From positions 36,087 to 100,086 of the forward strand of contig JAFYSJ010000002.1 of the NCBI GenBank assembly GCA_017559445.1: a stretch of 64,000 nt of DNA, in the 5' to 3' direction. How positions within the stretch are numbered: position 1 is the stretch's first letter; every line of letters starts with the position of its first letter. Positions 1,445-63,734 of the stretch are shown one piece after another. The notes beneath the pieces are model-generated. The model saw nothing but the letters and a program-made list of their open reading frames with translations, was not told where the DNA came from and did no database searches. This DNA comes from Clostridia bacterium (GTDB lineage: Bacteria > Bacillota > Clostridia > RGIG7378). A program made the translations under genes and the position numbers.

Positions 1445-1478
1445 ACAAAAAACCTTCCACGTATTTCTACATGGAAGG
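1445..1478 (-). terminator. Rho-independent terminator downstream of the M20 hydrolase/ABC operon
   Basis: Hairpin ccttccacgtatttctacatggaagg followed by a T-run on the minus strand. Confidence 0.5.
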
Positions 1479-1520
1479 CTCTAATTTTATATTCATCTGA
1501 TCTTAGGATCGTGGAGACAT

Positions 1521-1655
1521 TCACTAGCGCAGCGGCCTACTAGCGCTACAACGCGGCTCACTAGCGAATGCAATGAGCGGTTACTAGCAACGCAGTTGCG
1601 GCTCACTAGGCATAGCCGGTTCACTAACGAGCTTTGCTCGTGGTTCACTGACAAG
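1521..1655. repeat. Tandem array of CTAGTGAGCCGC-type mini-hairpin repeats (locus A, CACTAGCG orientation)
   Basis: Units cactagcgcagcggcc / tactagcgctacaacgcggctcactagcgaatgcaatgagcgg... The same family recurs at 15771, 18205, 20401, 42251 and 63537. This copy lies between the stop of the M20 gene and its terminator. Confidence 0.7.
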
Positions 1656-3042
1656 TTTTCTCGCAGAACTCTTCTCTAATCTTCACCAGCATCTCGGGCA
1701 TATGCAACAGGTCAACTGCAGTACCTGCCATTACCTTTGCTGCCAAGATCATACCCTTGTCACCAACAGAAGATGCACCACAAGATACATTCTGCCATGA
1801 GTGGCCTGGACAATTTGCTGGGAATGTGGCTGTCTCAACCTGTACTGTGGGGGTCTGCCAGCTTACATCACCTACGTCTGTGGAGCCCATGCGAACCTTA
1901 CGACATGGCTTGTATGGAACAACAAAGTTGTTAATTGCAGCCTTGCCCTTGTCAGACATCTGCCAAACCTTGTCATAGTCCTCAGTATCCAATTCATCTT
2001 CCAACTCCTTTATCTCAGGAATTGCAACAGGCGCCTCATATGACTTAATAAGGTCCTGTGCATACTGGAGTTCTTCCTTTGTGTACTCTGGAAGTCCAAC
2101 CTGAACAAAATTTTCATAAGTCAATCTCTCAAGTGGAGTGTTATTTACTGTGTTTGCTGTACTGTCTATCTGATGCACAGTAACCTGTGTCTCTGTCATA
2201 TCTGCAGCAGCTCTGGCAATTTTGTCCACGCGAGCAGCCAACTTAATGGTGTCGTGAATCTGTGGACATCTAACCATGTACACAACCTTAGCCTGTGCCT
2301 GAACTACATTGGGAGAAACTCCACCTGCATCTGTAATTGCATAGTGAATACGAGTGGAATCCGGCACATGCTCGCGCAAGAACTCAACTCCCATGTTCAT
2401 AAGCTGAATTGCATCCAGCGCACTTCTTCCACAGTCTGGATTGCCTGCCGCATGGGCTGAAATGCCGTTGAAAGTATATTCTCTCTGAATGCTTGCAATG
2501 TAAGAACCTGTTGTTACACGGTTCAAAGAACTAGGATGCCATGTAATAGCCACATCCAAATCTCTCCACACATTGTCCTCTGCCATGTAAGTCTTGGAAG
2601 CATATCCCTCCTCACCTGGGCAACCATAGAAAATAACTGTGCCTGGAAGATTGTTTTCGGTCAAATACTGCTTAACTGCACATGCTGCTGCCAAACTACC
2701 AGCACCTAACATGTTGTGACCACATCCGTGACCATTAGCACCTGCTTCAATAGGGCTGTGATATGTCTTTCCTGCCTCCTGAGAAAGGCCAGAAAGTGCA
2801 TCGAACTCGCCCAAAATACCGATGATTGGTCTACCACTACCATACCTTCCAAGGAAAGCTGTAGCCATACCAGAAAGGCCAGACTCTACTTCAAAACCCT
2901 GCTCAGCCAATACCTTGCAATAAAGCTCTGCAGATTTTGTCTCCATTAAAGAAAGCTCCGCCAGCTCCCATATTCTATGGCTGACGGAGATGAATAAATC
3001 CTGATTATTATCAATATAATTATATATGTCTTTTTTTGTCAT
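1645..3042 (-). CDS. M20 family metallo-amidohydrolase (AbgB / aminoacylase-like)
   Basis: 465 aa. Motifs GHGCGHN and the overall M20 peptidase/amidohydrolase layout are present. RBS aggag sits before the ATG at 3042. It is the last gene of an amino-acid ABC operon. Confidence 0.75.
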   Translation of the reverse strand: MTKKDIYNYIDNNQDLFISVSHRIWELAELSLMETKSAELYCKVLAEQGFEVESGLSGMATAFLGRYGSGRPIIGILGEFDALSGLSQEAGKTYHSPIEAGANGHGCGHNMLGAGSLAAACAVKQYLTENNLPGTVIFYGCPGEEGYASKTYMAEDNVWRDLDVAITWHPSSLNRVTTGSYIASIQREYTFNGISAHAAGNPDCGRSALDAIQLMNMGVEFLREHVPDSTRIHYAITDAGGVSPNVVQAQAKVVYMVRCPQIHDTIKLAARVDKIARAAADMTETQVTVHQIDSTANTVNNTPLERLTYENFVQVGLPEYTKEELQYAQDLIKSYEAPVAIPEIKELEDELDTEDYDKVWQMSDKGKAAINNFVVPYKPCRKVRMGSTDVGDVSWQTPTVQVETATFPANCPGHSWQNVSCGASSVGDKGMILAAKVMAGTAVDLLHMPEMLVKIREEFCEKTCQ

Positions 3043-5689: not shown

Positions 5690-5810
5690 ATCTTACATAA
5701 TAGTGTTTTGTGTATGTCCATTACTTTGGAACGACCCAAAGTAATCAAAGGTCGCCCGCTACTTCCGAAGCGCGGGAGGCACGGGTCGCAATGCTATGCT
5801 TTGCATGCAC
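5690..5810. repeat. Structured element of about 115 bp, copy 1. An inverted near-identical copy lies at 20510-20625.
   Basis: The reverse complement of 5703-5778 matches 20540-20610 exactly over about 76 bp, and similarity extends to about 115 bp. The element contains two hairpins: CCCGCG-cttcggaagta-GCGGG and ATTACTTTGG-gtcgtt-CCAAAGTAAT. Confidence 0.6.
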
Positions 5811-13720: not shown

Positions 13721-15652
13721 TTAGCAAACCTCAGATCCAAGAGGAATGTCCTTCTCGGGAGTTACGATGCAAAGCTGGCCATCCTGAGATGCGCAAAGCA
13801 CCATACCGTTAGACTCAACGCCGCAAAGTTTAACTGGCTTAAGATTTGTTACAACAACTACTCTCTTGCCTACCATTTCCTCTGGTGTGTAGTACTGAGC
13901 AATACCGGAAACTACCTGTCTTACCTCGTAGCCAAGGTCAATCTGGCTGCAGAGAAGCTTCTTGCTCTTAGCAACGCGCTCACATGCCTTGATCTGGCCA
14001 ACTCTCATCTCAAGCTTAGAGAATGCCTCGTAGTCAATAAGTTCCTTGGGCTCTGGCTTAGGCTGTGCCTTAGGTGCCTCTGCCTGTGCCAAAAGCTCGT
14101 CTACCTGCTGGTTAACAACTGCAGGGTCAAGTCTTGCAAAGAGAATCTCTGGCTTGTCTGTAACCTGTCCGCCGTTGTAAAGGCCGAATGTGGAGAGCTC
14201 CTCAAGCTTTCTAGCAGGGCTGTTGAGCATCTTGAGAATCTTAGCAGATGTCTCTGGCATGAAGGACTCCAACAAAGATGCGCCAATAACAAGGCTCTCT
14301 ACCAAGTTGTAAAGTACTGTCTTAAGTCTATCTGCTGTCTCAGGATTCTTAGCCAATACCCATGGTTCTGTCTCGTCGATATACTTGTTGCATCTCTTGA
14401 ACAAGTTAAAGATCTCAGTAATAGCATCTGCTACTCTAAGCTCCTCCATCTTAGCTGTTACCTTGTCTACACATGCTGTAGCAACTGCCTTAAGCTCTGC
14501 ATCTACATCTGCAGAAACACCGCCGTCTACAACCTGTCCACCAAAGTACTTGTTGCTCATGGCGATTGTACGATTAACAAGGTTACCCATTGTGTTAGCA
14601 AGGTCAGAGTTAACTCTCTCAACCATAAGGTCCCAAGTAATGGAGCCGTCGCTCTCAAATGGCATTTCGTGAAGAACAAAATATCTAACTGCGTCTACGC
14701 CGAAAAGCTTAACCAAATCGTCTGCGTAAATAAGGTTTCCGCGGGACTTGGACATCTTGTCGCCGTTTTGCAGAAGCCAAGGATGACCGAATACCTGCTT
14801 AGGCAATGGCAAATCCAAAGCCATGAGGAAAATAGGCCAGTAAATTGTATGGAAACGAATGATGTCCTTTCCGATAAGGTGAAGGTCTGCAGGCCAAAGT
14901 TCGCCAAACTGCTCTGTGCTGTCGCCAAGTGGATTGTATCCAATACCTGTGATGTAGTTTGTAAGAGCATCTAGCCATACGTATACAACGTGTCTTGGAT
15001 CGAATGGAACCTGAATACCCCACTTAAAGGAGCTACGAGAAACGCAAAGATCCTGAAGTCCTGGCTTAAGGAAGTTGTTCATCATCTCGTTCTTACGGGA
15101 AACTGGCTGGATGAACTCAGGGTGTGCCTCAATATGGTCAATAAGACGCTGAGCGTACTTGCTCATACGGAAGAAGTAAGCCTCCTCCTTAGCTGGCTGG
15201 CACTCTCTGCCACAGTCTGGGCACTTGCCATCTACCAACTGAGACTCTGTCCAGAAGGACTCACATGGTGTGCAGTACATACCCTCGTATGCACCCTTGT
15301 AAATATCACCCTGCTCGTAAAGTCTTGTGAAAATTTCCTGTACGCACTTTTCGTGATAATCGTCTGTTGTTCTAATAAATTTATCGTAAGAGGTGTTAAG
15401 CATGTCCCAAAGGCCGCGAATAACACCTGCTACGTTATCTACGTACTCCTTGGGTGTAACGCCTGCTGCGGCTGCCTTCTCCTCAATCTTCTGTCCGTGC
15501 TCGTCTGTACCTGTCTGGTAGAAAACGTTGTAGCCCTGGAATCTCTTATAACGGGCAATGGCGTCTGCCAAAACTGCCTCGTAGCAGTTGCCTATATGAG
15601 GCTTGCCAGATGTGTAAGCAATAGCTGTTGTAATGTAATAATTCTTTGCCAT
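13721..15652 (-). CDS. metG: Methionine--tRNA ligase with a C-terminal tRNA-binding (EMAP-like) domain
   Basis: HIGN motif (AYTSGKPHIGN), KMSKS, and a C-terminal tRNA-binding domain. Start set at MAKNYYITT, which is internal to the ORF-track call. Confidence 0.9.
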   Translation of the reverse strand: MAKNYYITTAIAYTSGKPHIGNCYEAVLADAIARYKRFQGYNVFYQTGTDEHGQKIEEKAAAAGVTPKEYVDNVAGVIRGLWDMLNTSYDKFIRTTDDYHEKCVQEIFTRLYEQGDIYKGAYEGMYCTPCESFWTESQLVDGKCPDCGRECQPAKEEAYFFRMSKYAQRLIDHIEAHPEFIQPVSRKNEMMNNFLKPGLQDLCVSRSSFKWGIQVPFDPRHVVYVWLDALTNYITGIGYNPLGDSTEQFGELWPADLHLIGKDIIRFHTIYWPIFLMALDLPLPKQVFGHPWLLQNGDKMSKSRGNLIYADDLVKLFGVDAVRYFVLHEMPFESDGSITWDLMVERVNSDLANTMGNLVNRTIAMSNKYFGGQVVDGGVSADVDAELKAVATACVDKVTAKMEELRVADAITEIFNLFKRCNKYIDETEPWVLAKNPETADRLKTVLYNLVESLVIGASLLESFMPETSAKILKMLNSPARKLEELSTFGLYNGGQVTDKPEILFARLDPAVVNQQVDELLAQAEAPKAQPKPEPKELIDYEAFSKLEMRVGQIKACERVAKSKKLLCSQIDLGYEVRQVVSGIAQYYTPEEMVGKRVVVVTNLKPVKLCGVESNGMVLCASQDGQLCIVTPEKDIPLGSEVC

Positions 15653-15770
15653 GTTGTGGGTTTTGCGACAAATGTGCCGCTCTCCTTTTCCAATTGTTCC
15701 ATGTCTGTACATAGATGGTGTTATTATATGATAGATAAAGACATCACGCAAGAAATAGTACGATGTCTTT

Positions 15771-16195
15771 AGTGAACCGCTACGCTAGTGACCGCTCATT
15801 GCATTCGCTAGTAGGCCACGAGCAAAGCTCGTTAGTGAGCCGCAAGCAAAGCTTGCTAGTATACGCTCGTTTCACTCGCTAGTGAGCCGCTACGCTAGTA
15901 ACCGCAACTACGTTGCTAGTGAACCGCAAGCGGGGCTTGCTAGTATACGCTCGTTTCACTCGCTAGTGAGCCGCTACGCTAGTGGCCGCGCTGTCGCGCT
16001 AGTGAACCGCAAGCGGGGCTTGCTAGTATACGCTCGTTTCACTCGCTAGTGAACCGCTGCGCTAGTAGGCCGCAACTACGTTGCTAGTGAGCCGCTACGC
16101 TAGTAGGCCGCGCTGTCGCGCTAGTGAACCGCAAGCGGGGCTTGCTAGTATACGCTCGTTTCACTCGCTAGTGAGCCGCTACGCTAGTGAGCACA
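15771..16195. repeat. Largest tandem array (about 425 bp) of CTAGTGAGCCGC-type mini-hairpin repeats (locus B), with a higher-order period of about 90 bp
   Basis: At least 20 units of CTAGT(G/A)(A/G/T)(G/A)CCGC separated by 4-13-nt GC-rich spacers, many of which are palindromic (GCAAGCGGGGCTTGC, GAGCAAAGCTCG). The block ctagtgaaccgcaagcggggcttgctagtatacgctcgtttcactcgctagtgagccgctacgctagtNgccgcgctgtcgcg repeats three times. Confidence 0.8.
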
Positions 16196-16284: not shown

Positions 16285-16911
16285 ATGCTAGATTTTGTTT
16301 GGCTTTTCCTACTACTTTCCGGGGCAATTTATGGCATGGTTACAGGACATCCTGGTGACATTTCCCAAGCCATACTCCAAGGAGCTGGGGATGGCATCCA
16401 AATTACCATTGGCCTTGCTGGAATGTTTTGCCTATGGAGTGGACTTACTGAAATTGCTTCACGAGCAGGGATTTTGACCTGGCTTAGCAACCTTTTATGG
16501 CCAGTAATCCATATTCTAATGCCAAACCTGCCCAAAGACTGTGATGCATCGCGAGCCATTTCCATGAACCTTGTGGCTAATATGCTTGGTGTAGGCAACG
16601 CTGCCACTCCCTTGGGAATAAAGGCAGTGCAGGAGTTAAAGATTCAAGAACGCACAGGTGACACAGTCTCCAATTCCATGATCATGTTCCTACTTTTGAA
16701 TGTGGCTGGACTACAATTGGTTCCTACCATGGTGCTTTCCATCCGCCAAGGTTGCGGTGCCACTGTAGCTTCATCTGTTCTTCCTAAGATTTGGGTTGTG
16801 CAAATCGTTTCCCTGCTGTGCGGAATAATCACCTGCGCCATATGTAGCTGTATTTCCTCCGTATCTAAAGCTCGTTTTCACAAAAAAGAGGCCCTTGTAT
16901 GTCAGGCATAA
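16285..16911 (+). CDS. spmA: Spore maturation protein A (nucleoside-recognition/Gate-domain membrane protein)
   Basis: About 208-aa polytopic protein. Size and organisation fit SpmA, and SpmB follows immediately. ATG at 16285 with RBS ttggag. Confidence 0.75.
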   Translation: MLDFVWLFLLLSGAIYGMVTGHPGDISQAILQGAGDGIQITIGLAGMFCLWSGLTEIASRAGILTWLSNLLWPVIHILMPNLPKDCDASRAISMNLVANMLGVGNAATPLGIKAVQELKIQERTGDTVSNSMIMFLLLNVAGLQLVPTMVLSIRQGCGATVASSVLPKIWVVQIVSLLCGIITCAICSCISSVSKARFHKKEALVCQA

Positions 16912-17405
16912 CTGAAATCATAGGGGCTTATGCCTTGCCTGTTATTGTGCTTCTCATTTTGGTAATTGGATTTGCCAAAAAGGTCCCCCTTTTTGACGCC
17001 TTCGTGGACGGAGTGAAACAAAGTTTGCCATCACTTGTTCGACTGATTCCTGTAATGGTGGGGCTCGTCACTGCAGTTACGGTTTTCCGTGCAGGTGGAG
17101 CGGCTCAGTTTATTAGCACCCTAGTTTCTCCAATTGCAAAATTCATGGGGTTTTCTTCAGAATTAATTTCCTTAGCAATTCTAAAACCCATTTCAGGATC
17201 CGCCTCTGCCACTTTAGCTGCAGACATAATGGAACAATTTGGACCCGATTCCATCACCGGCGTACAAGCTGCAATTTTACTGGGCTGTGGCGACACTGTC
17301 ATGTATGTAATCTCCGTATATTTTGGTTCTGCGGGCATAAAAAAACTGCGCTATGCCATACTTCCTATTCTGGTCTCTAGCGCAGTAGTTATTTTGTTAT
17401 TGTGA
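16899..17405 (+). CDS. spmB: Spore maturation protein B
   Basis: 168-aa Gate-domain membrane protein that overlaps spmA by 13 nt. RBS aaagagg. Confidence 0.75.
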   Translation: MSGITEIIGAYALPVIVLLILVIGFAKKVPLFDAFVDGVKQSLPSLVRLIPVMVGLVTAVTVFRAGGAAQFISTLVSPIAKFMGFSSELISLAILKPISGSASATLAADIMEQFGPDSITGVQAAILLGCGDTVMYVISVYFGSAGIKKLRYAILPILVSSAVVILLL

Positions 17406-18176
17406 TTTCTTGGTTTTCCATGCCTTTACAAAGAATGGAAGATAGAACAAGGCGGCTATTACGATAACCATTGTTCCAATTACGCCCAAATATATGAACC
17501 AATGGGTCTCCGTGGTCAAAGGAATATTAATTGGAGGTCTGTTTGTAAAAAAGAAGTTTGTAGCATAGTCTACACTAACAAGTTCTCCATTAATGTATGT
17601 AGGGGACGCAAATACTGAGTTAAGGAAAATGGATACAAATCCCATGGCTCCCAAAAGTCCCACTGTAGACAAATAGTGTCTTGGCTTTATCTCAAACTCT
17701 TTTGAGAATGGGATGTACAAACCCAATAAAATCAGCATTACATGGTACAAAAAGTACTGGTATGCCAATGGGTGTGTAAATGCCTGAGAAACTGTTATTG
17801 TCTCGTCAAAAACAATGGGAATAAACAAAGAAAATGCCGCTCCAACTCCACATGTTGGATACATAAAAGCAAGAAGATTCTCCCTGAATTTACAATCCTT
17901 TGCAAATCTTGTGTAGAAAATGAAGATCATTTGTATTGAACAAAGATGTAATGGCAACTGACCCACATCCAAATATGGATACATCATACTTCCGTCAGTG
18001 GAAGGAACCATTTCTACTGTGCTGAATAACCTTATTGCTTCTGCAACAACGGCAAAAATGCTGGCCCACTTAAGAACAAGGCGCAAAGGCGGTCTTTTCT
18101 TAAGCAGGAAATATAATCCCGCTCCAATTAACAAGAAACTTATAATCAGCCAAATAATGTGATTTGTTGTAAACAT
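17397..18176 (-). CDS. Polytopic integral membrane protein of unknown function (possibly YwaF/TIGR02206-like). A paralogue-like protein lies at 61603.
   Basis: 259 aa with 7-8 predicted TM segments. Motif PLHLCSIQ. Architecture resembles the ORF at 61603 (FPFQLCG). Confidence 0.45.
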   Translation of the reverse strand: MFTTNHIIWLIISFLLIGAGLYFLLKKRPPLRLVLKWASIFAVVAEAIRLFSTVEMVPSTDGSMMYPYLDVGQLPLHLCSIQMIFIFYTRFAKDCKFRENLLAFMYPTCGVGAAFSLFIPIVFDETITVSQAFTHPLAYQYFLYHVMLILLGLYIPFSKEFEIKPRHYLSTVGLLGAMGFVSIFLNSVFASPTYINGELVSVDYATNFFFTNRPPINIPLTTETHWFIYLGVIGTMVIVIAALFYLPFFVKAWKTKKSQ

Positions 18177-18204
18177 CGTCTATTCCTTTCACCATTAAGA
18201 CAAT

Positions 18205-18372
18205 TCACTAGCGAATGCAATGAGCGGCCACTAGCACAGCGGCTCACTAGCGAATGCAATGAGCGGCCACTAGCGCAGCGGTTCACTAGCAACGTAGTTG
18301 CGGCCTACTAACGAGCTTTGCTCGTGGCTCACTAGCGAATGCAATGAGCGGCCACTAGCGCAGCGGCTCACT
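18205..18372. repeat. CTAGTGAGCCGC-type mini-hairpin repeat array (locus C)
   Basis: cactagcgaatgcaatgagcggccactagcacagcggctcactagcgaatgcaatgagcgg..., lying between the rsmI stop and the next gene. Confidence 0.7.
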
Positions 18373-19219
18373 TCTCACTATCTAAATAAATCTGATAAGC
18401 ATCTCTTGCCGGGATTCCCAATGCCTTTGCTGCTTCCTTGGATGCATCCTTAAGTCTCATGCCAGCGTCGATTCTTTCCTGAATAGCTGCCACAATACCC
18501 TCGTTGGTGAGCTCCGCAGTTTCTTCCACTTCCTCGCCACCTGCCACGACAATTACGAACTCACCCTTTGGTGGAACTTCCTCGTACATTGCCAAGGCCT
18601 CGCCAATGGTCACGCGAACAATCTCCTCGTGGAGCTTAGTGAGCTCTCTACAAAGCGCAATCTTGCGCTCCGCTCCCCATGTTTCCTGCATGTCCTCCAA
18701 AGTGTTAACCAACTTGTGTGGTGCCTCGTAGAAAATCATGGTACGTGTCTCATTTGCCAACTGAGCCATGCGAGCACGCCTATTCTTTTTGTTAAGGGGC
18801 AAAAATCCCTCAAAAGTAAATCTATTTGTGTCCATTCCAGACAAAACAAGGGCCTGAATGCATGCAGCAGGACCTGGTGCCATGGTTACCACATAACCTG
18901 CCTCAGTAGCTGCCTGAATAAGAACCTGACCTGGGTCGCTGATTCCTGGTGTACCTGCATCGGAAACAAGTGCTATGTTTTGTCCCTGCTCCAAAAGAGA
19001 AAGCATATAGTCAACGCGAGCCTCCTCGTTATGTCTGTAGTAGCTAATGAGGTTATTCTTAATACCCAAGTGGTTAAGTAGCTGCAATGTTCTACGTGTG
19101 TCTTCGGCTGCAATTACATCTGCCTCTGCCAAAGTTTCCACAGCTCTAGGGGTGATGTCGCCCAAATTGCCAATGGGGGTGGCAACAACTGTTAATACGC
19201 CCAATGTATTGTTATCCAT
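18368..19219 (-). CDS. rsmI: 16S rRNA (cytidine1402-2'-O)-methyltransferase RsmI (YabC)
   Basis: N-terminal tetrapyrrole-methylase-like motif LTVVATPIGNLGDITPRAVETL. 283 aa. Confidence 0.9.
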   Translation of the reverse strand: MDNNTLGVLTVVATPIGNLGDITPRAVETLAEADVIAAEDTRRTLQLLNHLGIKNNLISYYRHNEEARVDYMLSLLEQGQNIALVSDAGTPGISDPGQVLIQAATEAGYVVTMAPGPAACIQALVLSGMDTNRFTFEGFLPLNKKNRRARMAQLANETRTMIFYEAPHKLVNTLEDMQETWGAERKIALCRELTKLHEEIVRVTIGEALAMYEEVPPKGEFVIVVAGGEEVEETAELTNEGIVAAIQERIDAGMRLKDASKEAAKALGIPARDAYQIYLDSEK

Positions 19220-20025: not shown

Positions 20026-20196
20026 TTATGCCTCAACAGGTGCTCCAACAGGGCATGTCTCTGCGCAGTTGCCGCAATCGATGCATGTATCTGCGTCGAT
20101 AACGTACTGACCATCACCCTCTGTGATAGCGCTTACTGGACAATCTGCTGCGCATGCGCCGCAAGAGATGCAAGCATCAGTAATCTTATATGCCAT
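20026..20196 (-). CDS. 2[4Fe-4S] clostridial-type ferredoxin (56 aa). It is absent from the ORF track because it falls below 60 aa.
   Basis: Manual translation gives MAYKITDACISCGACAADCPVSAITEGDGQYVIDADTCIDCGNCAETCPVGAPVEA, with two CxxCxxCxxxCP motifs. RBS ggaggt. Confidence 0.8.
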   Translation of the reverse strand: MAYKITDACISCGACAADCPVSAITEGDGQYVIDADTCIDCGNCAETCPVGAPVEA

Positions 20197-20400
20197 AATC
20201 ATGTACCTCCAAATATTCTATGTGGTCTATAAATAATACTCCAAAAAAATGACTTTGTCCATAAGTGGACATAGTTTCGCAAATCGAAACTGGTGTTTAA
20301 TATTGAATAAAAGTCTTTGTGTTACTATGCAAAAGACCCTTGGAACACAGCGACCAGCACTAATCACTCAACACTAAACACTAGATGCAAAGTGAAGAGT

Positions 20401-20495
20401 GATCCGCTACGCTAGTAGGCCGCAAGCAAAGCTTGCTAGTAACCGCAACTGCGTTGCTAGTGAAACGAACGCGTTGCGTTCTAGTGAAATGACCA
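20401..20495. repeat. CTAGTGAGCCGC-type mini-hairpin repeat array (locus D)
   Basis: gctagtaggccgcaagcaaagcttgctagtaaccgcaactgcgttgctagtgaaacgaacgcgttgcgttctagtgaaatgacc. Confidence 0.65.
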
Positions 20496-20509: not shown

Positions 20510-20625
20510 CCAGCACTAAACACTGCAAAGCAAAGCTTTGCGAACCGTGCCTCCCGCGCTTCGGAAGTAGCGGGCGACCTTTGATTACTTTGGGTCGTTC
20601 CAAAGTAATGGACATACACCAAACA
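20510..20625. repeat. Structured element of about 115 bp, copy 2, inverted relative to the copy at 5690-5810
   Basis: gcaaagcaaagctttgcgaaccgtgcctcccgcgcttcggaagtagcgggcgacctttgattactttgggtcgttccaaagtaatggacatacacc matches the reverse complement of 5690-5810. Confidence 0.6.
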
Positions 20626-20654
20626 CTAAATAAGAAGCTCGCTCCGCGTTCAAT

Positions 20655-21467
20655 TTACTTCTTAATAACCTTAACCTCGTCTGCCTTGAACACAATCTGG
20701 TCGCTCTCAGACTTTCCGTCAATGCGCACCTTAACTTGTTCTCTCAAAAGATTTACCTCAGTAACAACGCCTCTGCCACAGTCTGTCTCAACCATAGAAC
20801 CTGCCTTAGGCACTCTAGCAAGCAAATCCTCATATGCCTCAGACTCGTACTTGAGACAGCACATAAGTCTGCCACATGTACCGGAGATCTTAGTAGGGTT
20901 CAAAGAAAGATCCTGTTCCTTGGCCATCTTAATGGATACGGGATGGAAGTCGTCCATGTAAGAATGGCAGCATACTGGTCTACCACAGATTCCAAGTCCA
21001 CCCATCATCTTAGCCTCATCTCTAACGCCTACCTGACGAAGCTCGATTCTTGTCTTAAAGATTGTTGCCAAATCCTTAACCAAATCTCTAAAATCTACTC
21101 TGCCCTCTGCAGTGAAATAGAAGAGAATCTTGCTGCTATCCAATGTATATCCAACGTCAATGAGTTTCATCTCAATGCCGCGAGAAATAATCTTTTCCTT
21201 ACAAATTCTGAAAGCTTCCTTTTCCTTAATACGGTTAGCCTCGTAGTTATCCAAGTCCTCCTGAGTTGCCACACGGAGTACTGTCTTAAGGGGCTGTGTG
21301 ATACGGCTATCGTCCATCTCTGTGGGGCCGAACGTAATCTTGCCACACTCAAGACCTCTGGAAGTTTCTACCACGCAGGAATCGTTAACCTTGAGAGTCA
21401 ACTCACCTGGATCAAAGTAATATGCCTTGCCTGAATTTCTAAATCTAACTCCAACTACTGTTGTCAA
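20655..21467 (-). CDS. ricT: PSP1-domain protein RicT (YaaT, stage 0 sporulation/RNA maturation complex)
   Basis: Conserved Cys cluster GICGRPVCCHSYM...CGRLMCCLKYE. 270 aa. Confidence 0.8.
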   Translation of the reverse strand: MTTVVGVRFRNSGKAYYFDPGELTLKVNDSCVVETSRGLECGKITFGPTEMDDSRITQPLKTVLRVATQEDLDNYEANRIKEKEAFRICKEKIISRGIEMKLIDVGYTLDSSKILFYFTAEGRVDFRDLVKDLATIFKTRIELRQVGVRDEAKMMGGLGICGRPVCCHSYMDDFHPVSIKMAKEQDLSLNPTKISGTCGRLMCCLKYESEAYEDLLARVPKAGSMVETDCGRGVVTEVNLLREQVKVRIDGKSESDQIVFKADEVKVIKK

Positions 21468-32450: not shown

Positions 32451-34829
32451 TTATCTAAATGAAAGTTCACGATAGATAACGTATACGAAGCCCCATACCT
32501 GCTGCAAGATACTGAAGAACAGTACGCCGATGAAGATAATAATTACGGCTGCAAGCAAGATTACGAGAGTTACCAACATTGTCTTAGCAAATGAGTACTG
32601 GTGAGTAATCATTGTACCAACAACAATCAGCAAACCTGCCCAAACCAATCCGAAGATTGCGAGGAATGAGTGGATAGCACCTTCCTCAAGTGTTACACAG
32701 TAGCTGAGCAATACATTTGGAATGTAGAGCACTGGGATTGGCAACAATGCGTAGCAGGATGCCATAAAGATCTGCTTCATGTTTCCTTCGCCGTCCAACA
32801 AAGTTGTTGTACACCAGTTAGCAATTACCCACAAAGCCAAAGGTGCAAGTACTGCCAAGAACTCAATCCAAATATTAATCTTAGTTACATCGTTCTTGTT
32901 AAATGTGAATGATGTAAGCTGCTTCTGAAGAATCAAGGAGAAGATTGTAAGGGCAACGATGCCAATTGCAATCCAGATGTTTCCTCTGTTTTCCATCTTA
33001 AGTTCATAGAATCCCTTAACTGGGTTAAGCATATTCCTAAATGCAAATTTGATCTTCTCGCTTAAGCACTGTGGATCCTTAGCGGGCTTACCCTCTGGAC
33101 CATACTTCTTAAGAATCTGCTTCTTGCGAATTGCCTTGAATACTGCAATAGCAATTACAAGTACGAGAGCACATGTCATGAATGGACCGAATGCGTCATC
33201 AATCAACTCACTTCTTCTCTGCTTCCAAGCATTGGAGTAGTTTGTCTTCTTGTCGCCCAGCTTGAAGTACTTCATAGCTGTGTCGTAGTTCTTGTTCATG
33301 TACTCAACTCGGCCTACACCGATGTAAGCAAGCTGGAAGTTTGCGTTGTGGTAATCAATAATCTCCTGCCACAACTTTGCTGCATCATCCCACTTACCTT
33401 CATCCTGAAGTGCAAGAGCCTGGAGGATGTATCCGCCGTACTCAGTAATCTGGAACAAGGATACATAACCAGTTGTCTGGTCAAGTACCATCATGTCTGT
33501 ACCAAGGTACTCAATGGATACTGGCTTCTTGAATGTACCAGCTCTGATACCCAAGCCGCCGAAAATATAGAGGAGGTTACCATCCTGGTCGTATGTGAAA
33601 ACACGTCCTCTTGTGGAGTCCAATACGGAGTATACACCGTTGTTGGAACCATTGTTCAAAAGTGCTACGTCAACAATTCTGGATACACCAGCCTGCTCTG
33701 TTGCGTAGTAGTCAACCTGAACGTCTCCACCAGGAGCGAACCATGATGTTCTATAAAGAACGTCATTACCCAATGGGTTAAGTCTCTTTACAGAAGCATA
33801 ACGGTCGTCGTCTGTACCTGATGTAATATGTGCCTGGAACTCATACTGAGATACAGAAGAAGATGTTACGTAGATGAAGGACTTATCATCAATAGCAACG
33901 GAACTGTACTCAGAAGGAGTGAATGTAGCCTGTCTAGCTCTCTGCTCTCTGGTCATGAACCATCTCTTAATAACCTGGAAAATGGAAACACGAACCTTAG
34001 CTCTGCCGAAGAATGCTGTGAAGTTACCATCAGCATCAAACTTAAGCAAACCAGAAGTTACGTTCTTAGCAGCTACATAAAGTCTACCACCATCATCAAC
34101 TACCAAGGAGATTGGATAGTAAACATAGCCTGCTTCGAAGAGGTCGGACTCTGGAGCACCCAAAAGTCTTAAAACATCGTACTCCTTAGTCTCTTCGTTT
34201 AATCTGAAATGTACGATTCTAGAGTTGTTTGTATCACAAACATAGAATGTACCATCATTATCTACGAACATACCCTGAGGCTCACAGAACTGATACTGCT
34301 TACCCTCAAATGTATAGCCTGTAATTTCTCCAACAAGTGTCCAAGCATCTGGGTTCTCAGTCTTGTAAGAGAAAATCAAAAGACGACCCTTAGGAGTTGT
34401 ATCTACAACATCCTCTGTTGAGTCTGTTGTAACATCTGTTGTTACGTCTGTTGTTGCATCAGTTGTAACGTCTGTTGTTACATCACCTGTCTCATCAACA
34501 GTAGCAACACCCTCATCTGTTGTTACATCAGTTGTTGTATCACCTGTTACAGGAGCAATCCACTTAGAATCCAAGTAGTAGATCAAGTTGTTTGCTTCGT
34601 CACAAATAATAGCAACTGGATAAACAACAGGAGAATCTACGCCTTCAATCTTAGATACATCGATAACGGATGATACCTCGTATGCTGGTGGAGCGTAGAG
34701 AACATTCTTTGTAGAACTATATGTATAGTTAGAGAATGCTGCTGTTTCAGCAAAAGCTGGATAACAGCTAGATACCAACATAACAACAAGGAGAATTAAT
34801 GTTGAAATTTTAATTAATGCTTTCTTCAT
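32451..34829 (-). CDS. Fusion protein: signal peptide, a (T-D-V-T)n linker, an NHL-like beta-propeller, and a C-terminal Yip1-like multi-TM domain
   Basis: 792 aa, starting at MKKALIKIST with RBS aggagg. NHL-like blades (YVCDTNNSRIVHF, LYVAAKNVTSGLLKFDADGN). The C-terminal roughly 230 aa has 5 or more TM segments, Yip1-like. Low-complexity TTDVTTDATTDVTTDVTTD stretch. Confidence 0.5.
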   Translation of the reverse strand: MKKALIKISTLILLVVMLVSSCYPAFAETAAFSNYTYSSTKNVLYAPPAYEVSSVIDVSKIEGVDSPVVYPVAIICDEANNLIYYLDSKWIAPVTGDTTTDVTTDEGVATVDETGDVTTDVTTDATTDVTTDVTTDSTEDVVDTTPKGRLLIFSYKTENPDAWTLVGEITGYTFEGKQYQFCEPQGMFVDNDGTFYVCDTNNSRIVHFRLNEETKEYDVLRLLGAPESDLFEAGYVYYPISLVVDDGGRLYVAAKNVTSGLLKFDADGNFTAFFGRAKVRVSIFQVIKRWFMTREQRARQATFTPSEYSSVAIDDKSFIYVTSSSVSQYEFQAHITSGTDDDRYASVKRLNPLGNDVLYRTSWFAPGGDVQVDYYATEQAGVSRIVDVALLNNGSNNGVYSVLDSTRGRVFTYDQDGNLLYIFGGLGIRAGTFKKPVSIEYLGTDMMVLDQTTGYVSLFQITEYGGYILQALALQDEGKWDDAAKLWQEIIDYHNANFQLAYIGVGRVEYMNKNYDTAMKYFKLGDKKTNYSNAWKQRRSELIDDAFGPFMTCALVLVIAIAVFKAIRKKQILKKYGPEGKPAKDPQCLSEKIKFAFRNMLNPVKGFYELKMENRGNIWIAIGIVALTIFSLILQKQLTSFTFNKNDVTKINIWIEFLAVLAPLALWVIANWCTTTLLDGEGNMKQIFMASCYALLPIPVLYIPNVLLSYCVTLEEGAIHSFLAIFGLVWAGLLIVVGTMITHQYSFAKTMLVTLVILLAAVIIIFIGVLFFSILQQVWGFVYVIYRELSFR

Positions 34830-34839
34830 TTTGTCCTCC

Positions 34840-35751
34840 TTACTTAATACCTGAAGATGCCATTGTCTCAACAACGTTGGACTCTGTCAGCATGAACATT
34901 ACGATAGGAACGATCATGATGAATACGGCTACAGCAGAACCTGCACCCTGTCTAGCTACACCACCAGCCAAAATCTGGTTAAGAGCATAAGGCAAAGTCT
35001 TGAACTGCTCACTGAATACGTATACACCACCAGTTGTGTTCCAGAGAGACTGGAAGGAGAAGATAATCAATGTGAGCCAAGCTGGCTTAACGTTGGGCAT
35101 CGCAATGCTCCAGTAAACTCTGAACTCGTTTGCACCGTCGATACGAGCGGATTCGCAAAGAGCTGTTGGAAGTCCTTCCATGAACTGCTTCATAAGGAAG
35201 AGACCCATTGTGCTGGCAAATGCTGGAACTACAAGAGCAAGGTATGTATCCAACCATCCCAAACCAGAAAGAATCAAGTAGTTAGGAATGTATGTAACAG
35301 TTGCTGGGAACATCAAAGCCCAAATAACAGCTGTGAACAAGAAGTTCTTGCCAGGGAACTCATGCTTAGCCAATGCGAAAGCTGCCATTGAAGCCAAGAA
35401 CAAGTGTCCAATTGTACCGCATGCTGTAATGAATACGGTATTGAAAATGTATCTTGAGAATGGAACCCAAGACTCAGACATGATAATGAACAAGTCACTA
35501 AAGTTGTCCAATGTAGGGTTACGAGCAAAGAATCTCGGAGGGAATGCGAACAGCTCATCCATAGGCTTAACGGAGTTACTGATTGCATATACGAAGGGCA
35601 AAAGCATGAAGATACCTACGCCGATAAGCATTGCCATAATTGCTACGTCGCCGCCAACGGATCTGTTAGGCTTTCTTCTGCGGATAAACTTGCCTCCGAT
35701 CTTTGTTACTTTTTCTTCTTTAATTTTAGGTTCTTTAGCTTTTCTTGCCAT
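34840..35751 (-). CDS. Carbohydrate ABC transporter permease (MalG-like)
   Basis: EAA-like motif ESARIDGANEFRVYWSIAMP. 303 aa. Confidence 0.8.
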   Translation of the reverse strand: MARKAKEPKIKEEKVTKIGGKFIRRRKPNRSVGGDVAIMAMLIGVGIFMLLPFVYAISNSVKPMDELFAFPPRFFARNPTLDNFSDLFIIMSESWVPFSRYIFNTVFITACGTIGHLFLASMAAFALAKHEFPGKNFLFTAVIWALMFPATVTYIPNYLILSGLGWLDTYLALVVPAFASTMGLFLMKQFMEGLPTALCESARIDGANEFRVYWSIAMPNVKPAWLTLIIFSFQSLWNTTGGVYVFSEQFKTLPYALNQILAGGVARQGAGSAVAVFIMIVPIVMFMLTESNVVETMASSGIK

Positions 35752-40983: not shown

Positions 40984-41020
40984 AAGACGAGTTGGAATAT
41001 TTCCTTCTCGTCTTTTTTAG
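40984..41020 (+). terminator. Rho-independent terminator after the M23 peptidase gene
   Basis: Hairpin aagacgagttggaatatttccttctcgtctt plus TTTTT. Confidence 0.6.
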
Positions 41021-41068
41021 TATTTAGTGTTGGACGTTTAGTGTCCCGTCTTATGCTAGAACTGGAAT

Positions 41069-41612: not shown

Positions 41613-41813
41613 TTACTCCGTTACTTGTTCTGACTTTGATTTCTTCTTTTTGCGGATCTTGTTTATACAGCGCAGAAGCCATGCCCAACATATCAAAAAC
41701 CACAAACACATAAGTAGTGCATTCTCGTTATGCATGTATTTCAGGAGAATCACCATTCCGAATCCAATTGCTCCAACTGCAAACAAGATAACGCAAATTA
41801 TATCTTTTTTCAT
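41613..41813 (-). CDS. Small membrane protein (66 aa, 2 TM segments)
   Basis: MKKDIICVILFAVGAIGFGMVILLKY... ending in a KKKKSK tail. Directly upstream of the HTH membrane protein. Confidence 0.35.
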   Translation of the reverse strand: MKKDIICVILFAVGAIGFGMVILLKYMHNENALLMCLWFLICWAWLLRCINKIRKKKKSKSEQVTE

Positions 41814-41836
41814 AACAATCTCCTTTTCTTACACGG

Positions 41837-42010
41837 TCAAGTTTGCTTGTTCTTACACTTCTTAATAGCCATGCCTATTCCATAACCCGCAGCTATTCCT
41901 GCCAAAATACAAATCAGCGCCTTAACGATGTTGGTCAGAGCGATATATATAATTGCACAAACCACTCCCAACAAAAGATACAGCAGAATTTTCTTAGCAT
42001 TGTCGCTCAT
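41837..42010 (-). CDS. Small membrane protein (57 aa), absent from the ORF track
   Basis: Manual translation gives MSDNAKKILLYLLLGVVCAIIYIALTNIVKALICILAGIAAGYGIGMAIKKCKNKQT. No clear RBS, so confidence is low. Confidence 0.3.
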   Translation of the reverse strand: MSDNAKKILLYLLLGVVCAIIYIALTNIVKALICILAGIAAGYGIGMAIKKCKNKQT

Positions 42011-42250
42011 AAACGTCTCCCTACAAATCAGCTTGATATGTTTTAACGCAGAATAGTCCTGTAAAAAACCAATGTCAATTCAAAGAAAGACCATTTTCTA
42101 TTTCAATCCATTTTCGTTTCCATTTATTTCCAGTTATTATTCTGGCTGTCGACAAATTGAGACATTCACTTTTCCACGATTTCGAAGACAAAATAAAAAG
42201 ATCGAGCCCGGTTTAATCCCAAACTCAATCCTTGATTGTTATTTTGTTTT

Positions 42251-42432
42251 AGCAAGCTTTGCTTGCGGCCACTAGCCGAAGGCGATTCACTAGCGAATGC
42301 AATGAGCGGATACTAGCAAGCTCTGCTTGCGGCTCACTAGGACCGAAGGTCCGGCCTACTAGGCGTAGCCGGCTCACTAGCGCAGCGGCCTACTAGGCGT
42401 AGCCGGTTCACTAGCGCGAAGCGCGACCACTA
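42251..42432. repeat. CTAGTGAGCCGC-type mini-hairpin repeat array (locus E), abutting the pncB stop
   Basis: agcaagctttgcttgcggccactagccgaaggcgattcactagcgaatgcaatgagcggatactagcaagctctgcttgcggctcactagg... Confidence 0.7.
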
Positions 42433-43875
42433 TCTCTTAGACTTACTGCCTTCTCTAAGCAAGTTCCACTTAAGGTCGTACAACTTCTGAGACAAGTCAA
42501 CGTAGTACTTGTGAGGATTCTCAAATCTAAGAACGGAATCCCACATTGTTGCTACCTGCTCCTTGCAGTATGCCTGAATCTCCTGAGTTGTCTTGCGCTC
42601 GCATACTAACTGGCCCTTTTCAAAAAGCTTAACTCTAAGCTTCTTTGCGTGGAAGTCATATACGTCCTTGCGCTTCCATGTGTTCTCTGGATCGAAGATC
42701 TCATAATCCTGGCTATCGTCAATAACCTCGTCTGCCAATGTAATAACGTCAGCCAAAGCCTTGCCTGTCTGGTTATCGTAAAGTCTCCAAAGCTCCTTAA
42801 CACCTGGATTGTTAATCTTACCAATGTTTTCGCTGAGCTTAATCTTAGGCTCAATTGTTCCGTCCTGGTGTTCAATAGCGCAAAGCTTGTAAACACCGCC
42901 AAAAATAGGCTCAGACTGAGATGTAATAAGTCTCTCACCTACGCCGAAGGAATCAATAGGAGCTCCATCGCGAATAAGTTCACGAATTACATACTCATCA
43001 AGGGAGTTAGAAACGCAAATCTTACAATCTGGGTATCCAGCCTCGTCCAACATTCTGCGCACTTCCTTAGAAAGCCAACCCAAGTCACCGCTGTCGATAC
43101 GAACGCCTGCAGGTCTAGCACCCAAGGGCTTAAGGATTTCGTCAAAGCAACGAATTGCATTGGGAACACCAGACTTAAGAACGTTATATGTGTCGATAAG
43201 CAATGTACATGCATGAGGATATGTTCTAGCGTATGCACAGAAAGCCTCATACTCACTTGGGAAAGTCTGTACCCAGCTATGAGCCATTGTTCCCAAAGCA
43301 GGAATACCATACTCTCTGTCGGATAAAGTACATGCTGTTCCAGAACATCCGCCAATATATGCTGCTCTTGCACCCAAAATAGCTGCGCCAGAAGACTGAG
43401 CACGTCTGGAACCAAACTCCAAAACAGGTCTACCCTCTGCAGATCTGCAGATACGGTTAGCCTTTGTGCAAATCAAACTCTGATGGTTAATAACCAAGAG
43501 CACCATTGTTTCGATGAACTGAGCCTGAATAATAGGACCACGAACTGTCAAAATTGGCTCGCCTGGGAAAATAGGTGTACCCTCTGGAACGCACCATACA
43601 TCGCACTCAAACTTGAAGTTGCGCAAGTAATCCAAGAACTCAGGTGAGAAAATCTCCTTAGACTCAAGATATGCAATATCCTCATCTGTAAATGTGAGCT
43701 CCTGCAAATACTCGATAAGCTGGTCTACGCCACACATAATAGCCAAACCGCCTCCATCTGGAACTCTGCGGAAGAACATGTCAAAATATGCAATCTTCTC
43801 TGCCTGGCCCTGCTCCAAGTAGCCATTAGCCATAGTTAACTCATAAAAATCTGTAAGTAATGTTAAGTTCATCAT
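42430..43875 (-). CDS. pncB: Nicotinate phosphoribosyltransferase
   Basis: N-terminus LLTDFYELTMANGY. 481 aa, NAPRTase family. Confidence 0.85.
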   Translation of the reverse strand: MMNLTLLTDFYELTMANGYLEQGQAEKIAYFDMFFRRVPDGGGLAIMCGVDQLIEYLQELTFTDEDIAYLESKEIFSPEFLDYLRNFKFECDVWCVPEGTPIFPGEPILTVRGPIIQAQFIETMVLLVINHQSLICTKANRICRSAEGRPVLEFGSRRAQSSGAAILGARAAYIGGCSGTACTLSDREYGIPALGTMAHSWVQTFPSEYEAFCAYARTYPHACTLLIDTYNVLKSGVPNAIRCFDEILKPLGARPAGVRIDSGDLGWLSKEVRRMLDEAGYPDCKICVSNSLDEYVIRELIRDGAPIDSFGVGERLITSQSEPIFGGVYKLCAIEHQDGTIEPKIKLSENIGKINNPGVKELWRLYDNQTGKALADVITLADEVIDDSQDYEIFDPENTWKRKDVYDFHAKKLRVKLFEKGQLVCERKTTQEIQAYCKEQVATMWDSVLRFENPHKYYVDLSQKLYDLKWNLLREGSKSKR

Positions 43876-54653: not shown

Positions 54654-55517
54654 TTACTTTTTCTTCTTAGCAACAACAATTACAACAACTGCTGCTACGA
54701 GAACTACGCCAACAACTGCGCCTGTGATAATCCAGATTTTGCCAGCGCCCAAATCGTCGGCCTTATCATCTGCCTTGTCGTCTGTCTTATCGCCAGTTGC
54801 ATCTGTCTTGTCATCTGCACCTGTATCTGGTGTTACATCACCTGCAGATGCATTAGGATTTGTAGACTCCTCTGCCTTAATAGCCATTGTCCAATCCATC
54901 TGATATGCCTTAGCTGCTGTGAACTCTGTGCCATCATCAAACTTAAATGTAGCTGTATTTGTCTCACCAATTGCTACTGCGTTTGTCTCGTTGAAAGAAC
55001 AAACCTTGTCACCAACCTTAAGATTGTCTACGTCAAACTTAAGAACTGTGCCTACCTCATATGCTGCTGCATCACCATAGTAGAATCTTACGAAGAAGCC
55101 CTCTTCCAAATCGGATGCTGCTGTGAATGTAACATTTGTCCATCCATCATAACCTGCTGTAATAATGATTGAATCCTCTGCTGCGAACTCTTCATCAATG
55201 CACTCAATATAGTAAGCTGTAACATTGTTGTTATCATCATACTCTTCTGGAATAACGTTGAATGCCTTAGATGCAGCCTGGAAGAAACGAATGGAAAGGC
55301 CGTTATACATCAGATCATCTGTCAAGTAGGGTCTAAAGTCAAAGCTAACTGTCTGACCAGTAGTAACAGGAGTAGCGAAGTCTACCTGCAATGCGCACAT
55401 GTTCTCCTCGTCAACAGTACCGGAGATCTCCATGTAGGAGTTAGTGCCTGCAAATGCAACTGGGGCTACAGACAATGCAAGTGCCAAAATTGTAAGAATA
55501 GCAATTAATTTTTTCAT
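54654..55517 (-). CDS. Surface-protein paralogue A (287 aa): signal peptide, K/D-rich linker, and anchor module type 1 (KIWIITGAVVGV...KKKK)
   Basis: MKKLIAILTILALALSVAPVAFA signal peptide. The YYIECI core is shared with the paralogues. C-terminus DLGAGKIWIITGAVVGVVLVAAVVVIVVAKKKK. Confidence 0.7.
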   Translation of the reverse strand: MKKLIAILTILALALSVAPVAFAGTNSYMEISGTVDEENMCALQVDFATPVTTGQTVSFDFRPYLTDDLMYNGLSIRFFQAASKAFNVIPEEYDDNNNVTAYYIECIDEEFAAEDSIIITAGYDGWTNVTFTAASDLEEGFFVRFYYGDAAAYEVGTVLKFDVDNLKVGDKVCSFNETNAVAIGETNTATFKFDDGTEFTAAKAYQMDWTMAIKAEESTNPNASAGDVTPDTGADDKTDATGDKTDDKADDKADDLGAGKIWIITGAVVGVVLVAAVVVIVVAKKKK

Positions 55518-56321: not shown

Positions 56322-56406
56322 ATTTGTTTACCTCCAAAATATTTTGAATAGAAATTAAATTTCTCCCTAGATTTTAACAATGTAAATATATGGTGTCAAT
56401 GGTCCT

Positions 56407-56439
56407 TTTGCACAATTTACTTCTCTGTTTTTGTGCAAA
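56407..56439. promoter_or_regulatory. Palindromic operator TTTGCACAA-N15-TTGTGCAAA upstream of the -35 box of paralogue B
   Basis: ttttgcacaatttacttctctgtttttgtgcaaaa. On the coding strand it is followed by TTGACA-N16-TGTTAAAAT. Confidence 0.5.
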
Positions 56440-56468
56440 AAGCAAGATTTCACTTGAAATCTTGCTTT
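56436..56468 (-). terminator. Terminator after paralogue C, overlapping the paralogue-B operator half-site
   Basis: Hairpin aagcaagatttcaagtgaaatcttgctt plus T-run. Confidence 0.5.
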
Positions 56469-56483
56469 AAAAAAATTGCTTAA

Positions 56484-57233: not shown

Positions 57234-57287
57234 GTTTTCCTCCTGAAGTTTTTGCGACATATCTATCGTCTTATATATATTACCTAA

Positions 57288-57318
57288 AATAAAAGAAGGC
57301 TCCAAAACGGAGCCTTCT
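57288..57318 (-). terminator. Terminator after paralogue D
   Basis: Hairpin gaaggctccgttttggagccttc plus TTTTATTTT. Confidence 0.55.
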
Positions 57319-57339
57319 TCAATATGTATCTAACTTAGA

Positions 57340-58050: not shown

Positions 58051-58132
58051 TTTTGTTACCTCCATATATTAGAAAAATTACTTTCTCTTTAGTTGCATTT
58101 TACCAACGCCCACATGCATAGTCAATCATCCT

Positions 58133-63528: not shown

Positions 63529-63536
63529 GTCATTAG

Positions 63537-63562
63537 TTAGCCGCTCGTTTCACTCGCTAACG
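63537..63562. repeat. Short remnant of the CTAGTGAGCCGC repeat family (locus F)
   Basis: ttagccgctcgtttcactcgctaacg matches the unit tacgctcgtttcactcgctagtg of locus B. Confidence 0.35.
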
Positions 63563-63734
63563 AAAATAAATTATCTAAAGCAATCGTTAAAAGACGGTTG
63601 CTTTTTTGTTTGTCGAACGAGTATAGTGACCTTGGCAGAAACGGGAGGTGGAATTTCCCACAAGCGCAACTTTGACTCACGCACATTATTTCTATATAAT
63701 ATATTGTGCGAATGTCACAAAAGGGGGTGCGCAT

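Follow-up and report, generated by a model that had tools for sequence, protein, structure and literature searches.

The window analysed here is a 64-kb stretch (64,000 nucleotides; positions 36,087 to 100,086 of contig JAFYSJ010000002.1, GenBank assembly GCA_017559445.1) of the core chromosome of a Lachnospiraceae bacterium, with metG, rsmI, ksgA, mreB, rny, ftsK and pyr genes nearby, a GC content of 39–47%, and most of its genes on the minus strand. Between these genes lies a dispersed family of tandem arrays, each built from short units in which a conserved linker containing TAGT alternates with a variable insert. Six arrays (A1 to A6, Table 1) are present in the window, all within a few bases of where a first-pass annotation had placed them, and a seventh (A7), found just outside it in the same species, shows that the family is not restricted to this stretch. 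The sequence of the species at hand (the window and flanking contigs, ~84 kb in all) contains ~60 units at these seven loci, and the arrays account for ~15% of the intergenic DNA of the window.

Reality, architecture and placement of the arrays

The core motif proposed in the first-pass annotation, CTAGTRDRCCGC, has 18 matches in 64 kb against 0.04 ± 0.20 expected (100 dinucleotide shuffles), and all 18 fall inside five of the six named loci, the sixth (63533-63559) being a single degenerate unit. A wider form of the linker motif occurs 35 times in the 64-kb window and 0.54 times per 64 kb in a background set of 80 MetG loci from other Lachnospiraceae (1.42 Mb), in which no array was found. 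For A2, recent tandem amplification with a period of about 90 bp had been suggested; Tandem Repeats Finder detects two higher-order periods, one of 84 nt (3.1 copies, 87%) and another of 122 nt (1.9 copies, 97%), such that the exact period differs and the recent block duplication, most evident in the 97% of the 122-nt period, is real.

Because contigs often end inside arrays (L081 in A2, L139/L140 in A3) or start there (L098 in A5, scaffold_151 in A2), and because a constant repeat that alternates regularly with a variable spacer superficially recalls a CRISPR locus, an assembly artefact or a degenerate CRISPR-like array might be suspected. Such breaks are, however, expected of real repeats in short-read assemblies, and identical arrays with both flanks recur in many independent assemblies that differ in sample and assembler. 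The contigs compared were collected through exact-protein look-up from 14 ENA metagenome assemblies and two Logan runs; they are 96.8–100% identical to the window when arrays are excluded, and the same arrays are present in contigs of these 16 separate sequencing samples. One contig, ENA ERZ28653814 scaffold_151 (88 kb; L149 and L145 in our numbering), matches 20 kb of the window at 100% identity and, by coordinate offset, starts inside A2, which indicates that the strain of the window was in that sample and that the repeat breaks its assembly. The sample behind a second ENA assembly, ERZ28653723, has a strain 99.8% identical to the window. Nor do the arrays have the form of CRISPR: the repeat is 12 nt rather than 24–48 nt, the spacers of 4–15 nt are mostly self-complementary and are reused within and between arrays from a small common repertoire, dimensions far outside those of CRISPR, a leader is absent, and neither the 30 window open reading frames (ORFs) scanned with Pfam nor the pre-annotated genes of syntenic flanking contigs yielded a cas gene. 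An origin of either kind is effectively refuted.

When arrays are cut at TAGT, they resolve into units of 16–25 nt, and all units of any array point in the same direction, head-to-tail. The constant portion is a non-palindromic linker of 8–10 nt, (C)TAGT[GA][AG][GA]CC, whose main variants are TAGTGAGCC, TAGTGAACC and TAGTAGGCC and whose shorter or variant forms are TAGTGGCC, TAGTAACC, TAGTATAC and TAGTATCC. The remainder is an insert that runs up to and includes the C (or T) just ahead of the following TAGT, and the ~25 insert types are mostly perfect mini-palindromes. A perfect stem of 3–6 bp with a loop of 3–4 nt is present in 29 of the 43 distinct units of the species (counting stems of at least 3 bp with a 3–4 nt loop that end exactly at the last base of the insert), as compared with 2.8 ± 1.6 units in shuffles (maximum 12 in 2000). 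The palindromic spacers of the first-pass annotation are therefore borne out for most distinct units but not for all: the other 14 have no stem of at least 3 bp, and two of the commonest inserts, type b (GCTCATTGCATTCGC) and type e (GCTCGTTTCACTCGC), form no hairpin. Ten stems occur (GCAAGC, ACGAGC, GAACGC, GCAAC, GCACC, GGACC, GCGC, GCCG, GGC and GCC), and the stem sequence changes while the palindrome persists, the linker being the conserved part. The C of CTAGT belongs to the stem, because an A:T closing pair (ACGAGC...GCTCGT) makes the next unit start with TTAGT and not CTAGT.

The linker holds TAG and TGA in one frame, and since unit lengths leave remainders of 0, 1 and 2 when divided by 3, an array is closed to every reading frame; the linker terminates any frame that enters. 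As RNA, 6-bp stems have predicted folding energies of -7 to -8 kcal/mol and 2–3 bp stems about -3 kcal/mol, the commonest unit, e, is at 0 kcal/mol in RNAfold, and in several units the linker is predicted to pair with the next CTA instead. Whole arrays fold slightly better than shuffles (z = -2.0 and -2.1), which we dropped as support for RNA structure, the z-score being only about -2 and owing in part to linker-linker pairing. The strings of short stem-loops foreseen in the first-pass annotation would thus form at the 6-bp stems, but several common units would stay unfolded. On the DNA of A2, the linker variant CTAGTATAC makes TATACT, a -10-like hexamer of the minus strand at a distance of 17 nt from TTCACT (16025-16053); as a promoter-like site directed toward metG (16053-16025) it was rejected, its 9 of 12 matches being no better than those in shuffles.

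The arrays lie mainly in transcribed non-coding DNA directly past stop codons, in the sense orientation, and before a terminator or the next cistron. Five of the seven are sense-oriented and either lie 0–7 nt from a stop codon or contain it, and a terminator-like site follows four of those five (A1, A5, A6 and A7). The hairpin beyond A1 therefore places that array in a 3' untranslated region (UTR), between stop codon and terminator; the fifth array, A3, is intercistronic, because it ends only a short distance before the next ATG (Table 1). Three genes take their stop codon, TAG or TGA, from the first linker of the array (A1, A3 and A5). TAA is the stop codon of most other genes in the window, and what comes after it there is ordinary sequence. 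The description of the arrays as always intergenic is thus nearly correct, save that three arrays contribute the stop of the preceding gene and that in one case the final three codons are replaced. Orientation matches the adjacent transcript at six of seven loci but the replication strand, taken from a GC skew that is constantly negative across the window, at only four; A4 is the sole array antisense to both of its neighbouring genes.

Table 1. Arrays of the CTAGT family and other features of the region. Coordinates are window positions except where a contig (L number) is named.
Feature	Position	Strand	Composition	Context
A1	1521..1649	-	6 units and terminal CTAGTGA	First linker CAGTGAACC provides the TGA stop (1645-1647) of M20 peptidase gene 1645-3042(-)
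Intrinsic-terminator-like hairpin and T-run	1449..1482	-		39 nt after A1
A2	15769..16191	+	20 consecutive units and terminal partial CTAGTGAG; order a b c d e a f d e a g d e a f a g d e a; each unit starts (C/T)TAGT	Between divergent metG (13721-15652, -) and Gate-domain gene (16286-16911, +); sense to the latter
A3	18204..18379	-	8 units	Replaces last three codons of rsmI (18368-19219, -), supplying TGA stop 18368-18370; ends 24 nt before ATG of TMEM164 family gene (17397-18176, -)
A4	20390..20489	+	4 units and terminal CTAGTGAAA	Between PSP1 gene (20655-21467, -) and 56-aa ferredoxin gene
4Fe-4S ferredoxin gene, 56 aa	~20026-20196	-		Between A4 and a methyltransferase gene; below the length cut of the default ORF list; promoter-like site TGGACA-17-TATTAT at 20261-20233
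A5	42250..42432	-	9 units	First unit provides the TAG stop (42430-42432) of NAPRTase gene 42430-43875(-)
Terminator-like site	42197..42233	-		17 nt after A5
Two small called genes (57 and 66 aa)	~41620-42010; L096 3596-3993	-	No Pfam match	Between A5 and a 178-aa gene
A6	63533..63559	+	One degenerate unit, TTAGTTAGCC + GCTCGTTTCACTCGC + TA	4 nt past TAA stop of GH20-like gene 62497-63528(+)
Terminator-like site	63577..63604	+		17 nt after A6
AbiEi/AbiEii pair	~63700-64000; L090 4239-5578 vs L091 3247-3467		Abortive-infection / toxin-antitoxin	Downstream of the GH20-like gene
A7	L145 14377-14703, outside window	-		Starts at or 3-7 nt after stop of an aspartate/ornithine carbamoyltransferase family gene (OTCace domains) beside pyr genes; hairpin and T-run after the array
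Family 2 repeat	5701-5805; 20524-20628; L081 5821-6152; L082 4328-4559; L083 10840-10932		~105 nt	Window copies in inverted orientation
Family 3 heptad tracts	20350-20385 (reverse complement); 41020-41050; L081 3752-3843; L089 10837-11050		3-5 heptads (T/G)AGTGNN	Downstream of genes
Gene cluster	55680-61350	-	55680-56321, 57340-58065, 58248-58931 and 59089-61350 have a common 125-nt 3' end
12-nt (four-codon) tandem repeat	34409-34550	-	~11 copies	Inside 807-aa ORF 32451-34874

Turnover between strains and possible functions

Array content changes far faster than the chromosome around it, the flanks being 97–99.8% identical between strains whose arrays differ. At A7, four samples have 6, 8, 12 and 18 units, and one allele has a different 5' end that includes a change of the stop codon from TAA to TGA. 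At A5 there are four alleles of 7–12 units, all with the same TAG-stop start and the same final GCAAGC-NNN-GCTTGC unit, and between these ends units come and go, with an exchange of type b for type e at a single slot. The A2 array counts 21 units in the window, 11 in a 99.8%-identical strain (possibly a true deletion, possibly collapse during assembly), and 12 in a 97%-identical strain, where the composition is different and includes types otherwise found only at other loci. Arrays are present at A2, A5, A6 and A7 in all strains sampled, with an alternative A6 allele of three different units in strains without the AbiE island. In two strains (L081/L082), A3 is replaced by a different repeat (family 2) and A4 is absent. 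The outer boundaries are fixed and the interior changes quickly, by gain, loss and swap of whole units between near-identical strains.

Units are also common to different loci: unit types recur at 3–5 of them, and A2 and A3 have a common block of 75 nt (three units, 91% identical). Beyond the species, the closest MetG among GTDB species representatives is only 74% identical, an exact look-up of the MetG of the window had no match, and RsmI homologues form a graded series. Sister-species loci with RsmI 83% and 79% identical (DNA ~70%) have no arrays at the same genes, and the linker occurs there at background counts only. The family is thus, as first described, real, dispersed and lineage-specific, with recent tandem amplification and copy number that varies between strains.

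Given their position, the arrays might be host-selected RNA elements of 3' UTRs and intercistronic regions, in which single-stranded UAGUGA linkers between hairpins would serve as a platform for an RNA-binding protein or a ribonuclease, and so tune mRNA decay or processing, or would secure translation termination in all frames. The conserved linker, and stems that vary yet stay complementary, are what such a model would predict, but the predicted folding is weak (z of about -2 for arrays, 0 kcal/mol for the commonest unit, e), and the arrays have no match in Rfam, where at gathering thresholds only a tRNA-Leu was found (a sub-threshold fluoride-riboswitch match inside metG, at E ≤ 1, was dismissed). 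Sense orientation at six of seven loci and the position between stop codon and terminator point the same way, though A4 is antisense. Arrays are kept at A5 and A7 in every strain sampled, and heptad tracts of the related form (T/G)AGTGNN are found behind other genes, both in this species and in one related species; copy number and composition, however, vary freely among near-identical strains, and since A3 and A4 are missing from conspecific strains and the sister species have no arrays, no gene depends on them. We consider dedicated RNA elements quite improbable.

The arrays could instead act at the level of DNA, as clustered binding sites for, e.g., a partition protein, a nucleoid-associated protein or one related to restriction, which would recognise the linker with its CTAG. 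The motif is conserved over 9–12 nt, regularly spaced, and contains the palindrome CTAG in arrays that hold many other 4-bp palindromes; but because the linker spacing is in fact irregular (16–25 nt), the sites would be unphased on the helix, and this hypothesis must also contend with an orientation that tracks transcription, with arrays that are dispensable and strain-variable, and with a gene context that gives no support. It is very unlikely to account for the family.

The AbiE pair is present in window-type strains and missing in others, and the A6 repeat unit differs between these haplotypes; the two small genes near A5 are conserved in all strains. Family 2, whose two window copies are 96% identical, has the hairpins TACTTTGG-AACGA-CCCAAAGTA and CCCGC-TACTTCCGAAGC-GCGGG and no match in Rfam. 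In other strains and in a sister species its place is immediately at the rsmI stop codon, where the window has A3, and its presence in that sister species makes it probably ancestral at this site.

A third family consists of the heptad tracts, often followed by CTGGTC.C...GTTCC, which occur both here and in a related species whose RsmI is 79% identical. They have a TAGTG core in common with the CTAGT arrays, of which they may be the ancestor. Their NAG triplet every 7 nt is reminiscent of the sites of ring-shaped RNA-binding proteins, e.g., HutP.

Elsewhere in the window, several neighbouring genes of the 55.7–61.4 kb cluster have parts in common: besides the 3' end common to four of them, the cluster contains four of the five copies of a signal-peptide-like 5' end. 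Of those four genes, the two that were scanned (55680-56321 and 59089-61350) have no Pfam match, nor has the neighbouring 54654-55517, which makes the cluster look like a lineage-specific secreted protein family.

Origin and spread of the units

Relatives of the arrays were sought widely. A 21-nt two-unit pattern has no match in 185,579 species genomes, in IMG/VR viral contigs or in JGI metagenomes, and BLAST of A2 against plasmids and phages gave no match. With a looser pattern, metagenome contigs yielded 37 single matches, which is chance level, and no convincing array; two loci have three CTAGT at array-like spacing, though in unrelated contexts (L111 with 70% GC, and L114 with three tandem 21-nt copies). 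In the latter (JGI Ga0310345_10304480, 1430-1478), the copies of CTAGTGRGCCGCCGCTGCGCG stand at the end of an unrelated contig of 52% GC and resemble the 16-nt 'a' unit, either by chance or as a distant relative. In the literature, the six commonest 12-mers matched only two unrelated papers on eukaryotic cell biology, presumably through chance or primer sequences, and a search for repetitive extragenic palindromic (REP) elements and REP-associated tyrosine transposases (RAYTs), or for intergenic stem-loop repeats, in Lachnospiraceae and Firmicutes found nothing comparable.

The mosaic order of common unit types between loci and alleles, including single-unit differences, and the high density of the family (7 loci in ~84 kb) raise the question of whether units transpose. 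They could be miniature non-autonomous mobile elements whose enzyme is encoded elsewhere, e.g., a Y1/HUH transposase of RAYT-like type that uses single-stranded hairpin DNA as its substrate. A unit or block inserted next to a (C)TAGTGA-like target, with the target recreated, would generate head-to-tail arrays seeded at TAG or TGA stops; consistent with this, arrays begin AGTGA..CC, four of the six window arrays end CTAGTGA(A/G), and the start of the array is at or within 7 nt of a stop codon at five of seven loci. A conserved non-palindromic sequence plus a hairpin is, moreover, the layout generally recognised by IS200/IS605-type and REP-associated transposases (PMC3733652), but hairpins of 2–6 bp with at least 10 sequences, mixed with non-hairpin units, would be poor specific substrates, and neither a GTAG nor a CGTC tag is present.

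The survey that found no cas gene also found no transposase, neither in the 30 window ORFs nor among the pre-annotated flanking genes. A clean empty site to set against a filled one was sought and not found, the alternative alleles at A3 and A4 having other repeat families and complex replacements. The ends of A5 and A7 are fixed in all strains, as a minisatellite predicts. Transposition of units or blocks is accordingly an explanation that we hold to be unlikely.

The interpretation that we favour, with a probability of about one half, is that the family is a lineage-specific, dispersed, minisatellite-like repeat of modular units, each with a linker of single-stranded type and a short insert, and that it is for the most part selfish or neutral DNA and not a device dedicated to regulation. 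Arrays would grow and shrink by replication slippage or by unequal recombination in register at the linkers, and ectopic gene conversion, template switching or some further enzyme would homogenise unit types and carry them from locus to locus. Conversion or template switching is suggested by the swap of type b for type e, because a change at three positions in an otherwise conserved array is hard to attribute to point mutation. What keeps the stems perfect might be quasi-palindrome correction templated by the hairpin, weak selection in favour of hairpins, or both.

Under the same minisatellite-like model, arrays would be retained because an insertion does little harm at such sites, between a stop codon and its terminator or between two cistrons. 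The TAG-TGA linker would render overlap with gene ends harmless, and may provide the microhomology that seeds arrays at stop codons in the sense orientation. On the mRNA, a chain of weak stem-loops may alter 3'-end decay or processing as REP elements do; the effect on RNA is probably modest.

Some observations weigh against this model. No empty site with clean boundaries was found that would reveal how arrays reach new loci, and the 9–12 nt of linker homology is short for RecA-dependent exchange, leaving room for an enzyme-driven process. The stop-codon association and the sense bias could result from selection for an RNA function instead, the orientation bias itself resting on seven loci only (binomial p ~0.06). 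Some of the copy-number differences may be short-read assembly collapse, which is plausible for the 11 versus 21 units of A2, and abundance is known from ~84 kb of the species only.

Comparison with known repeat families

Short interspersed repeats have been well studied in Proteobacteria (as REP/REPIN-RAYT systems) and are hardly described in the Clostridia that dominate the gut and rumen. The present family, from one uncultured gut or rumen Lachnospiraceae species, is apparently undescribed, and a novel mechanism is so far without evidence; what makes it unusual are the tiny modular units, the abutment or replacement of stop codons, the local density, and the turnover between strains that are ~99% identical. 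Its arrays cause contig breaks in metagenome assemblies of this species, and their fast turnover makes them a ready-made, high-resolution strain marker. They also lend themselves to the study of how such tiny repeats spread and of any effect on mRNA 3' ends; an enzyme or RNA-binding partner, if there is one, would make this a new repeat system. It is doubtful, in our estimation, that the units are either 16–25 nt modules, a hairpin with a guide-like linker, pasted singly beside (C)TAGTGA by an enzyme acting on single-stranded DNA, or multi-site UAGUGA platforms for RNA–protein binding; if one of these were true, the arrays would represent a new class of bacterial repeat, beyond another REP-like family.

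The first-pass annotation had proposed a REP-like element or a related bacterial interspersed mosaic element (BIME), or alternatively a miniature inverted-repeat transposable element (MITE). REPs are imperfect palindromes of about 20–40 nt with a GTAG or CGTC tag and a link to a RAYT transposase (PMC3733652, PMC2817692), and BIMEs are regularly spaced REPs in alternating orientation (PMC2817692). In both cases the repeats are short, GC-rich, palindrome-bearing, extragenic, species-specific, abundant (in the present family, locally), clustered and strain-variable, they typically lie between stop codon and terminator or between cistrons, and they are expected to be transcribed as stem-loops (PMC2817692, PMC3733652).

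The structural details differ throughout. The palindromes of the present family measure 7–15 nt, have at least 10 stem sequences, and are lacking in about a third of unit types; the conserved part, which in REPs is the palindrome, is here the opposite, a non-palindromic linker of 8–10 nt. There is no tag, the flanks of a unit being (C)TAGT[GA][AG][GA]CC and CTAGT, with CTAC/GTAG only in the loop of one unit type, and units run head-to-tail in one orientation rather than alternating as in BIMEs. Set against the REP criterion of more than 100 extragenic copies per genome stand ~60 units at 7 loci in ~84 kb, and the absence of a RAYT gene from the genes surveyed likewise covers only ~84 kb, such a gene usually being single-copy. 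Nor is the family a MITE, an element of 50–500 bp bounded by terminal inverted repeats and a target-site duplication, because its arrays have no such inverted repeats. The 5' end of an array reads AGTGA..CC and its 3' end CTAGTGA or CTA, in direct orientation, and no clean empty site was found that could define a duplication. Membership of REP/BIME or MITE, as first proposed, is therefore not sustained.

Closer in organisation are dispersed variable-number tandem repeats (VNTRs), two hallmarks of which are present here: head-to-tail units at seven loci, and copy-number polymorphism with conserved boundaries (allowing for short-read collapse). MIRU elements, a family of this kind, have near-identical units of 46–100 bp containing small ORFs that overlap flanking genes and couple translation. 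Like the CTAGT arrays, they occupy many intergenic loci inside operons in head-to-tail order, are oriented with the flanking genes, overlap upstream stop codons, and differ in copy number between strains within fixed array boundaries; units here, in contrast, are 16–25 nt long, modular, heterogeneous and hairpin-bearing, and carry stop codons instead of ORFs.

Among Firmicutes, the BOX elements of Streptococcus pneumoniae (modules of 45–59 nt) and the STAR elements of Staphylococcus aureus (14-nt GC-rich direct repeats with ~40-nt spacers) are likewise intergenic, modular, GC-rich relative to the genome and strain-variable, with a variable tandem number (of boxB in BOX). They differ from the present family in module size, sequence and design, and neither alternates a constant linker with different mini-palindromes. 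The CTAGT family is REP-like in its placement and probable consequences, yet it departs from REP, BIME and MITE elements in every structural criterion that could be tested and stands outside all three.

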